This document shows positions 15,484-21,675 of a DNA stretch of 64,000 nt, one piece after another. Below the pieces are notes generated by a model, which was given only the letters and a program-made list of their open reading frames with translations, did no database searches and had not been told where the DNA came from. The position numbers and the translations under genes are program-made. Origin of the DNA: Vicinamibacteria bacterium (GTDB lineage: Bacteria; Acidobacteriota; Vicinamibacteria; Vicinamibacterales; JAENWD01). The DNA is taken from contig CAWDZE010000008.1 in assembly GCA_963806705.1 (NCBI GenBank), positions 104,700 to 168,699 on the forward strand, written 5' to 3'. Every line of letters starts with the position of its first letter. The stretch's first letter is position 1.

Positions 15484-16624
15484 GTGGTGATCGCCGCGAC
15501 GATCCTGCACATGATCGCCGTGGCGATTCCGAACGTCCCGCGGCCTTACGTCGATTACGCCCGTTTCCCGCTGCTGAGCGGCGTTCACCAGTACGAGACC
15601 TACGGCACGGACACGATCGGCAATTCATACGTCGCCAAGGTCGTGTTGAATGATCCGCTCGACATGTACACCAAGGCGCGTCTTGAACAGACACCGCTCG
15701 AGAAGGCGACGTGGACCAGGGAGTCATCAGCCCCCTACCCGCCGGCGGCCTTGCTGACGGCGGCGGGGCTGTATGCCGTCGGGGAGGTGACGGGAGTCGG
15801 GTTCTACGGCATGGTCGTGCTGCTCGCCGCGCTGTTCATCGCGCTGTCGCTCTGGTATTTTCTGAATACGCGATGGTACCTCTTTCCCCTCCTGTACCTG
15901 AACTTCGCGTACTTCGGACATCGGTTCGTCTACGTACAGGACGACTCGTACCTCGCCATGCTCGTCGTGGTCATGATCGCGCTCGTCCTCGCGCGCTCGA
16001 GGCGCCAGGCCAGTCACATCCTGATGGCGCTCGCCATCACGATGAAGCTCTCGCCGGCGGCGTACGCGTGGCAGATCCTGACCATGAGACGTCGGTACGG
16101 CGATGATCTTTGCCGCCATCCTGCTTGCCGGTCTCGTGCTCCCTTATTTCATCTGGGACAACTACCTGTACATCTTCACATTCCACGAGCAGGTCAAAGG
16201 CAACGTCTACGACACGGTCGCGGCGGTCGCGCTGGTCGTGCCCTTCACGATTGTGCTGTGGTATGTCGAGACGCGGCTTGGGTTCGACATGGAGGATCGG
16301 ATCGGGTGGTCGCTGGTTCCGTTCGCGATGTTTGTCGGCATCAAGATGCGGGTCGCCCGGCACCTGCTGATCGTGCTCCTGGTGCCGGACAAGCGGGGTC
16401 CGCGCAACATCGCGGCATCCATCGGCCTCGCGCTCCACGCCGCGGCTCCGGATGTGTTCCGACTCGGGTCGGTGCTTTACATCACGACCGTTCTGCTCTT
16501 GGCACTCCTGGCGCATTATCTGTGGAGAATCGGCTGGGCGACGGTTCGCGATGACGCGCGGCATCCGCTGCGCACCGCCAGGCTGCTGTTGTCGGAGCGC
16601 CGGCCGGGTTCTATGGCGGCATAG
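15484..16624 (+). CDS. GT-C type (GT87-like) membrane glycosyltransferase; frameshift near 16100
   Basis: APYPPAALL, VQDD, ALAITMKLSP motifs with multiple TM helices; continues in ORF 16103-16624. Confidence 0.55.
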
Positions 16625-17927: not shown

Positions 17928-18363
17928 TCGGCGATTCACGGGATCTCGCCACAGCGCTGGTTTGGCGAGGGCTCGCGACGCCGTCACTGGACGTCTCGCA
18001 GGTCCAATCGTCTTGGCTTCCGCCGCGCGTTTCGTTCGGGGACTCACCAACACTCGCGGAGGCCGTTGGAAAATCGTCGCCCACACCCGATATCGCGCCG
18101 TCCTCCTGCACTCTTGAGATCATGGCCGACGCGATCGCGTAGCGCTTCTCCGCGGCCGTGAGCCAGGTGGCCTCGACTTCGGCGCGGCGGGTCGTGTCGA
18201 CGGGGCCGAGGAACAGCCGGTCGATCTCGTTGAGGACGGCGAGCCCGCGTGACAACAGTTTCCTGAGGAACGGGTCGCGCACCGCGTGCCGCAGCGCCTG
18301 GGCTTCCGCGCGCCGGGCGTCGACGCGGTCTCGAAGCTCGTGGCGTCGCCTTGCGTCGATCAT
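17842..18363 (-). CDS. Hypothetical helical protein (3' end uncertain, overlaps the GT9 end)
   Basis: AGGAG RBS; amphipathic helical first ~100 aa; resembles 41047-41356. Confidence 0.5.
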   Translation of the reverse strand: MIDARRRHELRDRVDARRAEAQALRHAVRDPFLRKLLSRGLAVLNEIDRLFLGPVDTTRRAEVEATWLTAAEKRYAIASAMISRVQEDGAISGVGDDFPTASASVGESPNETRGGSQDDWTCETSSDGVASPRQTSAVARSRESPISEQRQRVQLRSAPPRDASEPARRSPRS

Positions 18364-18744
18364 CGTGTCACTCCTGCGGTACCCTGGGCCTCCCTGGCCG
18401 TCGAGGTGAAGCGGGTGTGTCGCGCTGGGCGGCGGCGCGTCGGGAAGCGGGCGTCAGGCTTCGGTTTCAGTCTGACCTCGCCGCCGCCGACCGCTGGACC
18501 ATGCAGTTTCCACCCGTCGTGCAGTGATTCAACACCGGGGCCGGCGTCTCATCGCCGGTAGTGGCCGGGCACACCCAATGGCTTACACAAGGGGTGTGCC
18601 AGCCCCTGACGAGCGACGCCGCACGGCTACGCCGGAAGCCCGCCTGCAGCTCATCACTGCGAGTTGGATTCCGTCGGCACTCAACCCAGGCCGGAGGTTC
18701 GGCGAAGCGGGGCACTCGCAGTGAGCGGGACCTTGCCTTACCGG

Positions 18745-18773
18745 TTGACACTCAGCGGATGAAGGCTCAGCAT
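18745..18773 (+). promoter_or_regulatory. Possible sigma70 promoter for the metal operon
   Basis: Perfect TTGACA at 18745, but only a weak -10 (CAGCAT) at 17-bp spacing. Confidence 0.3.
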
Positions 18774-18777
18774 CTAG

Positions 18778-19140
18778 TTGGTGCCCGGTCTCCGAGTGTT
18801 CAGCGCGGGTTTGTTGCTGACGGCCCTGTTCGCCGGCAACGCCGCCGTGTGCGCCGCTGCAGCCCGAACCGCTGACGCGGAGATGGCGTGTTGCAAGGCC
18901 GGCCATCGCACGTGCGGGCGAATGACCAGCGCGAGCGATTGCTGCAAGTCGCGCCAGCAGACCGCCCCTACCAGCCCAGTCGCCAAACAGGTCGATGTCG
19001 CGGTCGTGATTGCTCTCCCGGCCAGCGTCCCGGCGCTGTTCGCGTTGGTCACGGAAAGTCGCCTGGACGTGCCGGCGGACGGCACGTGGAAGCGGCCGCA
19101 CGATCCCCCCCACCTCCACGCATTCTCCATGCTGATCTAG
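18778..19140 (+). CDS. Cys-rich leader protein of the metal operon (DUF2946-like architecture)
   Basis: Signal/TM segment, MACCKAGH..C..DCCK, Pro-rich C-terminus RPHDPPHLH. Confidence 0.65.
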   Translation: MVPGLRVFSAGLLLTALFAGNAAVCAAAARTADAEMACCKAGHRTCGRMTSASDCCKSRQQTAPTSPVAKQVDVAVVIALPASVPALFALVTESRLDVPADGTWKRPHDPPHLHAFSMLI

Positions 19141-19195
19141 CTCCTCGCGGCTCACAACGCAGCGGCCGGTATTCGTCTGCTTCAAGGAGTGCGAG

Positions 19196-19573
19196 ATGCG
19201 GGAACGTGTGTACGCCGCCGCCGGGCTGATGTCAGCTCTGACGACGCTCGTCTGTTGAACGCTGCCGATCTTGTTCGTGAGCCTAGGTCTAGGCTCCGTC
19301 ATTGCGTCGGCACTTAGCGCAGCGCCCTGGATCGCGTCAGTCGGACGCCACAAAAACGGCGTCTTTCTGACCGTCGCGGCGCTGCTCGCCTTTAACTATT
19401 GGATCGCCATTGCGCGCCCTCGCCGCCAGGCGTGTCCACCGGGAGAGGTGTGTCACATCGACAGCCCGGCCATGCGCGTCAATCGCTGGCTGTACTGGGC
19501 GTCGGTGGTGATTTACCTGGTCGCGGTGGTGGTGACGTACGCGGCGCTGTGGTGGGTGGAGAGGCAGTCATGA
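19196..19573 (+). CDS. MerT-like mercury/heavy-metal transporter, predicted selenoprotein (Sec21, TGA 19256-19258)
   Basis: AAGGAG RBS then ATG 19196: MRERVYAAAGLMSALTTLVC-TGA-TLPILFVSLGLG, in frame with ORF 19271-19573. The TGA sits in the MerT CC motif; loop CPPGEVC is retained; 3 TM helices. Confidence 0.8.
19263..19312 (+). promoter_or_regulatory. Candidate bacterial SECIS element (MerT-like gene)
   Basis: Upper stem GAGCCTA/TAGGCTC (19279-19296) with GGTC loop; lower stem TGCCGA/TCGGCA; loop lies 27 nt after UGA; uses rare CTA codons. Confidence 0.7.
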
Positions 19574-20415
19574 ACACGACCGCGGCCTGCCTGGCCGCCG
19601 CGCTTTGCGCCCTTCCCCAGGCGACCCTAGCCTCTGGACATGGGCCGGTCTTCGGAGCCACAACGCCGACGCTTGGCAAAGGGGGATGGAGCGTCGACAC
19701 GGCATGGACGCTGCGCGCCAGTGAGCCTGAGGGCGCAGAGCAGATGCTCAAGAGCATGATCAGTTTCGGCATCACCGAGAACCTGCAGCTCTCGGCATCG
19801 CTGCCCCTCGCAACCACGAGCGGAACACTGCCTGGGGCTCGCATGATGAGCCTGATGTCGAATGAGCGGGAACTCGAGGTGCTGGCCGGCTATCGGTTTC
19901 AACGCCGCGTGGTCGGCATCGGCGGGCGGCAGGAGAGTACCGTCTACGCCGGGTGGACGCTTCCATTTGAATCGACACGGGGAGGCATCCGGGCGTCACC
20001 GTCGCTGTACCTCGGGGCCGCAACCGGTTACGCGTCGCGGTCGCACTATGTCTGGGTGGGAGGCGGCCTGCAGCACTTCACCGAGGACCAGGGCGACCAG
20101 CTGGGGGCCAGCCGCTTCGCCAGCGTCGTCTATGGCTTCCGGCCCAAGCCGTTGCGCGTCGAGGCGCACAAGCCCGATGCGCGGCTGTTTGTCGAGGCGA
20201 CTGCCGAGGATCGGCAGCCGGACAAGGCGGGCGGAGTCCGGCAGGCCACCGCCGCCCGATCCGTGTTTGTTGGACCGACGACGCTGATCCTGTATAAGGC
20301 GTTCGCCTTTGAGGCGGGGGTGCTCTTTCCGGCCTACCAGCGTGTGGACGCGGGACGGAGCAAGGAGCGTCTCCGCGTGGCCGTGAACCTGAGTTATTTC
20401 TTTTGGCTGAAATGA
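19570..20415 (+). CDS. Putative outer-membrane beta-barrel transporter
   Basis: ATGA overlap with the merT-like gene; signal peptide then HGPVFG; alternating aromatic beta strands; ends VNLSYFFWLK. Confidence 0.75.
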   Translation: MNTTAACLAAALCALPQATLASGHGPVFGATTPTLGKGGWSVDTAWTLRASEPEGAEQMLKSMISFGITENLQLSASLPLATTSGTLPGARMMSLMSNERELEVLAGYRFQRRVVGIGGRQESTVYAGWTLPFESTRGGIRASPSLYLGAATGYASRSHYVWVGGGLQHFTEDQGDQLGASRFASVVYGFRPKPLRVEAHKPDARLFVEATAEDRQPDKAGGVRQATAARSVFVGPTTLILYKAFAFEAGVLFPAYQRVDAGRSKERLRVAVNLSYFFWLK

Positions 20416-20425
20416 GAGGTGCGAT

Positions 20426-20926
20426 ATGCGGCGGACCCTTCTGGCGTTGGCGGCAGTCATGCTGGCGGCAACTTCCGTGCGTGCCGAGTTGCGCCACGCT
20501 GAAATCAAGACCCTGGGGATGGATTGAGAAATCTGCGCCCACGCCGTGAGCGTGGCCATGCGGAAGATTCCAGGCGTCAGGGCAGTCCGGGTGAGCCTCA
20601 ACGACGGGTCGACGCTGCTCGACTTGACTCCGAGTAACACCGTGACCCTCGCCCAATTGCGGACCGTTTTGAAGAACAGCGGGTTCGTGTCCAAAGAGGC
20701 GCGGCTTGAAGCGGCCGGGATGGTGACTGCGGACGGTCCGGGACTGTTGTTTACCGTGGCCGGGACTGGGGAGAAGTTCACGCTCTTGCCGGGCCTGACC
20801 ACTCGTGCGGCGTATGAAGGTCTGAAGGGACGCCTGCAGGAGGGGCCTCTTGCGCTGCAGCTCAAGGGGACAGCACGCGCCCCTGACGAGAAGGCGCCAT
20901 CGCTGGTACTCGACGCGGTGCAGTAA
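20426..20926 (+). CDS. Periplasmic HMA (MerP/CopZ-like) protein with C-terminal extra domain, predicted selenoprotein (Sec34, TGA 20525-20527)
   Basis: GAGGT RBS, ATG 20426, signal peptide, then KTLGMD-TGA-EICAHAVSVAMRKIPGVRAVRVSL = GMxCxxC motif as UxxC; in frame with ORF 20546-20926. Confidence 0.82.
20533..20563 (+). promoter_or_regulatory. Candidate bacterial SECIS element (HMA gene)
   Basis: Stem CCACGC/GCGTGG (20539-20555), loop CGTGA with G at position 2, 17 nt after UGA; possible lower stem CTGCG/TGCGG. Confidence 0.55.
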
Positions 20927-21063
20927 CGAAGAAAATTGGAACAACGACGCAACGTGCCGACCTGCGGAGCCAACTGCTGACCTGGCCGGGCGCCTACGCC
21001 AGGGCTACGGTAGACTGCGGTCGTAGGCCAGTGAGCCATTTCCACGGGCAGGCAAGGAGACGC

Positions 21064-21675
21064 ATGCTCAAGCTGCTTGGCATCGTCATACTCCTGGTTG
21101 TCGCGCTTGTGGCGGGCGTGTTCGTCTACGCCAGAAGCACGGGCCTGCGAGCCCGCAGCCAGCCCGGCACACTTGAAACGGTCGTCGCGCGTGCTGTGCG
21201 TGCCGCTGCAATTCCACCCGACGACCGTCAGCGCCGCAATCCGGTGCCCGCATCTGCGGAGGCGGTCACTCACGGGATGGAGCACTTCGCCGATCACTGC
21301 GCGACCTGCCACGCCAACGACGGGAGCGGAAAGACCGATTTCGGACGCGGGCTGTTTCCGAAGCCGCCGGATTTGCGCGCGGCTGCCACGCAGGGCCTGA
21401 CCGACGGCGAGTTGTGCTACATCATTGAAAACGGCGTCCGGTTCACCGGTATGCCCGCATTCGGATCGGCCGACGCCGCGGGAGCCCCAGATACGTGGCA
21501 TCTGGTCCACTTCATTCGCGAACTTCCGCGGCTCACGCCCGAGCAGATCAAGCAAATGGAAGCGCTGAATCCGAAGGCACCCGACGAGATTCGGCGGCAG
21601 ATCGCCGAAGAAGAGCGGCGGAATGGACGTAGTCGACAGCCCCAGCCCCCTCCGTCAAAGCCGCACCATCATTGA
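21064..21675 (+). CDS. Membrane-anchored monoheme cytochrome c
   Basis: HCATCH, PKPPDL, GVRFTGMPAFG, WHLVHFIREL; AAGGAG RBS; His-rich tail. Confidence 0.92.
   Translation: MLKLLGIVILLVVALVAGVFVYARSTGLRARSQPGTLETVVARAVRAAAIPPDDRQRRNPVPASAEAVTHGMEHFADHCATCHANDGSGKTDFGRGLFPKPPDLRAAATQGLTDGELCYIIENGVRFTGMPAFGSADAAGAPDTWHLVHFIRELPRLTPEQIKQMEALNPKAPDEIRRQIAEEERRNGRSRQPQPPPSKPHHH

Follow-up and report, generated by a model that had tools for sequence, protein, structure and literature searches.

Two predicted selenoproteins, a MerT-type and an HMA protein, in a conserved four-gene operon of Acidobacteriota

The locus and its MerT-like gene

The window, a 64,000-nucleotide stretch of a Vicinamibacteria bacterium genome (contig CAWDZE010000008.1), carries on its plus strand a gene for a MerT-like membrane protein of 125 amino acids (19196..19573). 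The gene starts with an ATG at 19196, behind the RBS AGGAG (19185-19189), and its codons 20 and 21 read TGT-TGA. Beyond this in-frame TGA (19256..19258, +), the predicted codon for selenocysteine (Sec, U) 21, the frame runs to 19573 without another internal stop. The product would carry C20-U21 in its first hydrophobic stretch and C80-x5-C86 in a basic loop, with hydropathy maxima around residues 5-45, 97-123 and, less marked, 53-75. Only four genes recur around this CU gene, namely a Cys-rich leader, the MerT-like gene itself, an outer-membrane barrel and an HMA protein, and the genes flanking the operon are mostly unrelated between loci. A monoheme cytochrome c gene (21031-21675, +) follows the operon in this genome; it was considered as an operon member and set aside, as tblastn gave no match in the relatives' loci shown. 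Elsewhere in the window, a GT87-like membrane gene (15484-16624, +) is seemingly split over two overlapping frames near 16100, a possible frameshift; it lies ahead of a GT9 glycosyltransferase gene. A promoter scan of the locus found none, terminators occurred at chance level, and the one RNA contig (run X20, depth 3) covers the leader only and is no evidence of transcription.

The MerT-like protein is a clear homologue of MerT that stays below the family cut-offs, scoring 30.7 against 32.9 bits on PF02411 (E 3e-7) and 31.3 against 150 on NF010314. Over 117 residues, it aligns with the MerT of a real mer operon at 27% identity and with C-U on C-C, which bears out the original prediction that the TGA replaces the second Cys of the CC pair in TM1. 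The UGA column is an invariant Cys in the 13 Cys rows of our alignment A2, and CCxxP is found in 138 of 150 wider relatives; one weak match (L016) has no Cys in this column and another (L014) is unalignable. Across 49 rows, C20/U21 is invariant and C80/C86 is kept in at least 90%. The AlphaFold model is poor (pLDDT 65), and at this low confidence it drew no Foldseek match and only generic helical bundles in another structure comparison (Z ≤8.3). No sequence relative was found in the PDB.

A search of metagenomes with two patterns drawn from the C-terminal half of the MerT-like protein gave 119 relatives. In all of the best 80, which were kept, codon 21 is TGA and never TAA or TAG, and coding is conserved on both sides of it. 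Together with the genome loci, these make 93 TGA rows when duplicates are counted, corresponding to 74 distinct genes and, at less than 90% nucleotide identity (median 74%), 58 clusters; the start codon lies exactly 20 codons 5′ of the TGA in 56 of the 58. Both the TGA of the CU gene and that of the HMA gene are the same in contigs of the public DNA runs X1 and X3, the best run possibly being the source of the window. A copy in genome G012 (L012/L017/L023) has a frameshift near codon 47 with TGA and hairpin intact, and is either an assembly error or a pseudogene. Among protein-database entries, the best 120 of 965 matches all start after the UGA, so that their metal site is absent; these annotations call for correction, and this same set holds no full-length Cys member of the CU clade. 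Full-length CC relatives in a 50% library match the MerT-like protein partially.

In a midpoint-rooted tree of 61 rows (36 CU, 14 Cys and 11 canonical MerT-like proteins), a branch (99/95) splits off the 36 CU proteins, which have a long stem and group with the 14 Cys proteins, apart from the canonical ones; this grouping carries a warning of long-branch joining, and the G410 gene described below is absent from the tree. For 13 of these 14 Cys proteins, the fetched locus contains a barrel gene or an HMA gene like those here. The distribution of the CU gene is patchy, as it occurs in 4 of 14 genomes of the genus, while a sample of 401 genomes of the phylum yielded 24 that match, 2 of them with TGA forms. 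Named relatives at 64-87% come from Vicinamibacteria and other Acidobacteriota MAGs.

Hairpins, a second UGA gene and the selenocysteine machinery

Downstream of the UGA lies the candidate bacterial SECIS 1 (19277..19297, +), a 7-bp stem (19279-19285/19290-19296) closing a GGUC loop (19286-19289), with a further pair at +19/+39 and a bulged base at +20. The original prediction had the stem and loop right and placed the hairpin 27 nt downstream; this figure is the distance from the UGA to the loop, and the stem begins at +21. Judged by our own script rather than bSECISearch, its loop of 4 nt with GG, stem of 7 bp, spacing of 27 nt and energy of -9.5 kcal/mol fall within the bSECIS model, for which the source text gives a loop of 3-9 nt, a stem of 4-16 bp, a G in the first two loop places, 16-37 nt from the UGA and at most -7.5 kcal/mol (PMC13188914). 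Taken in this genome alone, the hairpin is suggestive and chance is not negligible: the fold z-score is -0.2 over 80 nt and -2.8 and -2.9 when trimmed, and an equally stable G-loop hairpin follows 96 of the 1105 true TGA stops of this genome, or 11 of 1105 with a GG loop. Its reality is settled by conservation, because all 7 stem pairs are intact in 58 of 58 clusters; the bare stem reaches -7.5 kcal/mol or better in 56 of them. Among 25 Cys homologues, none has the complete 7-bp stem and at most 5 of the 7 pairs form, so the refuting outcome named originally, a hairpin equally conserved in Cys-encoding homologues, did not come about (58/58 against 0/25). A looser search found another hairpin of -7.5 kcal/mol or better in 3 of the 25, none of them among the nearest 14. 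The covariation proposed as a check is thus only partly seen, in that the hairpin is lost from Cys homologues and its stem has no two-sided compensatory change across the 58 clusters; of nine stem substitutions in the 74 distinct genes, eight keep the pairing through one-sided G-U changes and one breaks the end pair. Rfam gave no match within 18300-21100.

Codon usage offers a second view of the same element. CTA, described at the outset as a rare Leu codon, indeed makes up 0.8% of Leu codons in the 1905 long ORFs of this genome, and none of its 956 LGL tripeptides is written CTA-GGT-CTA. Within the CU gene, CTA accounts for 108 of 115 hairpin Leu codons against 11 of 700 elsewhere. Codons 28-35 are almost frozen, with a top codon at 89-100%, compared with only 39-53% for the invariant residues L18, A43, P44, P82, P91 and R94. 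These frozen synonymous codons, together with the stem lost in Cys homologues, uphold the earlier proposal that the RNA structure is under selection. The resemblance to the E. coli fdhF SECIS (NC_000913.3) is narrower than first described. The six-letter apex (AGGTCT in DNA, AGGUCU in RNA) is identical and a bulged U lies below the stem in both, but the apex sits at +27 instead of +18, 9 nt farther out, 7 rather than 4 bp stand above the bulge, and the lower stem is unconserved. This lower closure, TGCCGA/TCGGCA, does form in the fold of this genome as noted originally; with its six pairs kept in only 33-53 of the 58 clusters, we rejected it as a conserved element. The fdhF element is described as needing its upper stem-loop at 11 nt from the UGA (PMC8659212). 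Compared with seven further candidate Sec genes of this genome, whose loops lie 15-22 nt from the UGA, the SECIS 1 loop is also about 5-12 nt farther out.

The HMA gene (20426..20926, +) likely encodes selenocysteine as well, as judged from its sequence and that of its relatives. It is predicted to specify a signal peptide, an HMA (MerP/CopZ) domain with GMD-U-x-x-C and a further C-terminal part, and its in-frame TGA (20525..20527, +) would give selenocysteine 34 in place of the first metal Cys. The protein matches CopZ models at E 1e-8, below the equivalog cut-offs, and its profile finds CopZ, MerP and Cu-ATPase domains in the PDB. Its own hairpin, SECIS 2 (20539..20555, +), has a 6-bp stem and a 5-nt loop with G in the second place, 17 nt from the UGA; all 6 pairs are present in 48 of 48 distinct sequences, compared with 1-4 pairs in seven Cys forms. 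Pair +12/+28 covaries (C-G 45, A-U 2, U-A 1), a two-sided change in three sequences. Across the phylum sample, 12 genomes from 9 families carry the HMA TGA, which is more widely spread there than the CU form of the MerT-like gene; six of their loci, outside the first set, retain 4-6 pairs. selA is present in 11 of these 12 genomes, G386 being the exception, and in 1 of 5 genomes with an all-Cys operon, four of those five belonging to one genus. Three states of the operon were seen, CC with CxxC, CC with UxxC and CU with UxxC. In 58 of 58 loci (duplicates included) that cover both the CU gene and the HMA motif, both genes have U, and none of the 58 combines a CU carrier with a Cys chaperone; the existence of the state with CC and U shows that a Sec chaperone can function with a carrier that has Cys. 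A separate stretch of genome G000 (C3:332383-332553, L174) matches only the C-terminal part of the HMA protein (residues 110-166; 63%).

The genome of the window has selA, selB, selC (tRNA-Sec) and selD, the last itself with a TGA. In seven other genomes with the CU gene, tRNA-Sec was found in 7 of 7, selA in 6 of 7 and selB over its cut-off in 6 of 7 (split in G001). With selA so widespread in the sample (14/20), this co-occurrence carries little weight. G000 has five more candidate Sec codons with G-loop hairpins, in UxxC, CxxU and related motifs, at C5:225417(+), C4:154373(+), C4:18149(-), C1:84307(-) and C13:52921(+); the genome-wide scan was strict and missed both window genes, so it gives no selenoproteome count. 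ARAGORN labelled a 92-nt tRNA in G000 (C11:165026-165117, -) as Cys(GCA); this tRNA reaches 45.5 bits with the tRNA-Sec model and was not re-called when the piece was scanned alone; a normal tRNA-Cys is present on C17.

G386 (L151, C9:249292-249714) has the HMA TGA with an intact hairpin in a genome that is 100% complete by markers, and selA, selB, selD and tRNA-Sec were not found in it; matches of EF-Tu strength are missing too, so an assembly gap is possible. We regard G386 as a real counter-case to the Sec reading, with such a gap as one possible explanation. G410 (L154:3019-3309 (-), C126:8100-8390) holds a very divergent CU membrane gene of 97 amino acids in the same operon position, before the barrel and HMA genes. 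Its loop Cys pair is absent, and its hairpin is weak (-4.8 kcal/mol), with the GGUC loop again 27 nt from the UGA but on a stem of different letters. Relatives of this gene were sought in a protein search, in which none scored, and in 121 genomes, which gave five weak matches without the stop; hhalign against A2 reached only 57% over 27 columns, which fits one or two origins of CU. The G410 operon is flanked by MerR-family regulators, themselves below cut-off, and a MerTP fusion, in a MerR/MerTP/CopZ island.

How the UGA is read can now be weighed. Were it a true stop, a 20-residue peptide would be followed by a protein of 98-100 amino acids started at TTG26 or GTG28, with the hairpin serving as re-initiation control or as a DNA operator. 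Gene callers do pick these starts in the best 120 of 965 matches, GTG28 is kept in 57 of 58 clusters and, read as DNA, the stem is almost perfectly palindromic. One of the stem bases, however, is the G of GTG28, and eight of the nine stem changes yield G-U on the coding strand, a pattern that fits RNA better than a DNA operator. A product truncated in this way would moreover lose the metal site, and the UGA falls on a position that is Cys in all 13 Cys rows of A2 and lies within the CCxxP of 138/150 wider relatives, without ever becoming TAA or TAG. We consider this reading very improbable. Still more remote is the idea that an altered code or a suppressor tRNA has the UGA read as Cys or Trp, to which G386 lends something by keeping its HMA UGA with no Sec genes found. 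In the genome of the window, TGA is the commonest stop and ends 1097 of 1905 long ORFs, and the sole TCA tRNA called is tRNA-Sec. A suppressor tRNA was looked for in G386, and no tRNA was found at its two anticodon-like matches; under this reading the hairpin would also be needless. Homology, TGA conservation, frozen synonymous codons and Sec machinery agree with the MerT-like C-U protein as originally proposed, and on these sequence grounds the gene very likely encodes selenocysteine at position 21.

The barrel and the leader

The gene between the two predicted selenoprotein genes (19570..20415, +) overlaps the MerT-like stop with its start (ATGA) and encodes a signal peptide and a predicted 12-strand outer-membrane barrel of COG4313/FapF shape. 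The model is of high confidence (pLDDT 92), and its closest folds are FapF and a COG4313 channel (TM ~0.69), which are not metal channels. After a small-residue cleavage motif, the mature N-terminus is predicted to read x-x-His in 44 of 48 barrels, with the cleavage site judged by eye. A terminus of this form recalls the ATCUN motif (defined in PMC12509749). Five Met residues of the barrel are conserved in 71-83% of 48 rows.

At the head of the operon, the leader ORF (18778..19140, +; about 120 amino acids, start uncertain) has a hydrophobic N-terminus, a CC-x6-C-x8-CC cluster and a conserved C-terminal RPHDPPHLH tail. The five Cys and the tail are invariant in 17 chosen rows, with the tail at a fixed distance from the stop. 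Of the 51 clusters that extend far enough upstream, 38 have the leader and 13 lack it. It has no Pfam family, PF11162 (DUF2946) being unmatched in the 17 rows, and DUF2946 is no more than a weak neighbour of it (Atlas 0.93, 113 features), a lead only. The features of the leader recall CruR and CutF (DUF2946), which are described as the first gene of a metal operon with an export-like N-terminus, a Cys cluster, a C-terminal PP and a hairpin over the next RBS (PMC9426467; bioRxiv 10.1101/2025.02.05.636593). In contrast to these, the window leader has HDPP instead of RAPP, CC pairs instead of CxxC and no Pfam DUF2946. From its sequence, it is predicted to be a metal-sensing arrest peptide, a candidate for a new one.

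The intergenic region that follows (19141..19195, +) is predicted to form a duplex pairing bases after the leader stop with the RBS of the MerT-like gene. The effect is modest: the duplex has a median of -12.4 kcal/mol with its own sequence versus -10.0 swapped and -9.9 shuffled, and it beats the shuffle mean in 34 of 38 cases. In a folding test, the unpaired fraction of the RBS rose from 0.18 to 0.21 with a ribosome at the leader PP and to 0.40 with a ribosome at the stop. The test lends no support to plain control of the CutF type, since stalling at the PP leaves the RBS largely paired (0.18 to 0.21).

Proposed metal handling and relation to known systems

These parts are likely joined in a relay of four genes for import of a soft metal, most probably copper, in which the MerT-type Sec21 protein would perform the inner-membrane step. 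SelB with Sec-tRNA would bind the GGUC loop 27 nt downstream and insert Sec, creating C20-U21. Metal would cross the barrel, past its x-x-His N-terminus and Met cluster, to the periplasmic HMA U-x-x-C. From there it would pass to C20-U21 in the membrane and on to C80/C86 at the cytoplasmic side, by analogy with MerP and MerT. The leader would sense the metal during its own translation, as CruR and CutF do, and a ribosome at the leader stop would free the MerT-like RBS. Output would then depend on selenium as well as metal, because the UGA stops translation without selenium. Taken as a whole, with copper and import included, the mechanism has in our judgement about an even chance of being right. 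The case for copper is circumstantial and consists of the x-x-His terminus, the Met residues, the CruR/CutF-like leader and neighbours in two loci, where YcnI-type DUF1775 genes lie beside L022 and L104 and a Cu/Zn SOD gene beside L022. Selenolate is softer and more acidic than thiolate, giving tighter binding of Cu(I) and Hg(II).

The same two selenoproteins could instead protect against an excess of soft metal (Cu, Ag, Cd, Zn), with the HMA protein sequestering metal in the periplasm and the barrel letting it out as proposed for PcoB, itself a 12-strand barrel with His/Met. The MerR-family regulators that adjoin the G410 operon would agree with this, and MerR-family and MerTP neighbours suit induction by a toxic metal; CutF, too, activates a gene for detoxification. 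Genes for RND and outer-membrane efflux lie near L073, L095 and L178, and L090 contains an ArsP-type permease, though RND neighbours are common and sporadic, and neither an oxidase nor a reductase nor an exporter is a conserved member of the operon. As characterised MerT moves metal inwards, protection seems to us unlikely, while remaining a serious contender. Capture of mercury or organomercury, with selenium lending very high affinity for Hg, would fit the best family matches, which are MerT and MerP/CopZ, and the link drawn by Haft and Gwadz between CU motifs and heavy-metal binding, including HgcA (bioRxiv 10.1101/2022.07.06.499078). The operon is not a mer operon, however, because MerA is over its cut-off in only 1 of 19 operon genomes; counting this genome separately, where the best MerA score is 330 against 454, the tally is 0/1 and 1/19. 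Import of Hg without a reductase would presumably do harm, and the proteins sit on a long branch away from canonical MerT, below every MerT cut-off. Mercury capture therefore strikes us as quite improbable.

Several relatives of the import relay are in print. MerT has C24/C25 and C76/C82 and takes metal from MerP (PMC5715351), and the mer pair shares with our operon the TM1 pair, a loop pair five residues apart and a periplasmic HMA partner. It differs from the present operon, in which the conserved block contains neither merA nor merR, a barrel and a leader are added, both metal sites hold Sec and the branch is long. Haft and Gwadz mention that a small set of selenoproteins in the MerT family, for example WP_250634603.1, has a CU motif (bioRxiv 10.1101/2022.07.06.499078), and reviews give a C/SxxU motif for ABB16073.1 (PF02411), a "putative mercuric transport protein" (PMC9312934, PMC13188914). 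Both are MerT-like with Sec and are set beside the CU clade here by their descriptions only; the source text available for them gives no operon, SECIS or host group. The MerT/CopZ fusion selenoprotein NF045683 combines MerT-like and HMA parts with Sec, and both window proteins match it weakly. It is a 235-aa fusion with a cut-off of 375 bits, on which the 125-aa MerT-like protein scores 23.8 and a canonical MerTP fusion 91, whereas here the MerT-like and HMA parts belong to two genes that each have a UGA and a hairpin of their own and flank the barrel gene.

HMA-type selenoproteins are likewise listed in reviews and surveys (PMC9312934, PMC13188914, PMC2398784, PMC1976440). NF041115 (UxxU), an E1-E2 ATPase (UxxC) and the "MerP" of the GOS survey (PMC2398784) share Sec in the HMA motif; the window protein scores 26.1 against 95 on NF041115 and is distinct in being exported, in its U-x-x-C and in its extra C-terminal part. 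A 2026 review treats Sec-containing transporters as predicted only and calls their role open (PMC13188914). Term searches of the selenium-related literature, deep-Sep and BSepDB returned, in the text they cover, no description of the CU clade, the exported UxxC HMA partner or the operon; BSepDB covers Vicinamibacteria and may hold these genes. As far as these sources go, the CU-type MerT selenoprotein is thus a kind already in print, the clade fails the NCBIfam model, and the operon is undescribed in the literature searched. The locus is more interesting as an operon of two selenoproteins than as a single gene.

The three natural states of the operon (CC with CxxC, CC with UxxC and CU with UxxC) make the contribution of selenium to metal hand-over testable with small proteins, and SECIS 1, lying 9 nt farther out than in fdhF, is a natural test of SelB reach. 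A bolder form of the copper reading, which we hold tentatively and think possible though doubtful, is a Se-to-Se import chain widespread in uncultured Acidobacteriota, made of a metal-gating barrel, a Sec chaperone, a Sec membrane carrier and a new HDPP arrest leader. Sec would have arisen first in the chaperone and then in the carrier at least once, perhaps twice (in the main clade and in G410), as a tighter donor favours a tighter acceptor. If this chain is real, it would supply S/S, Se/S and Se/Se versions of one relay with which to ask why metal transporters use selenium, and it would mean that the MerT fold can serve nutrition rather than mercury resistance.
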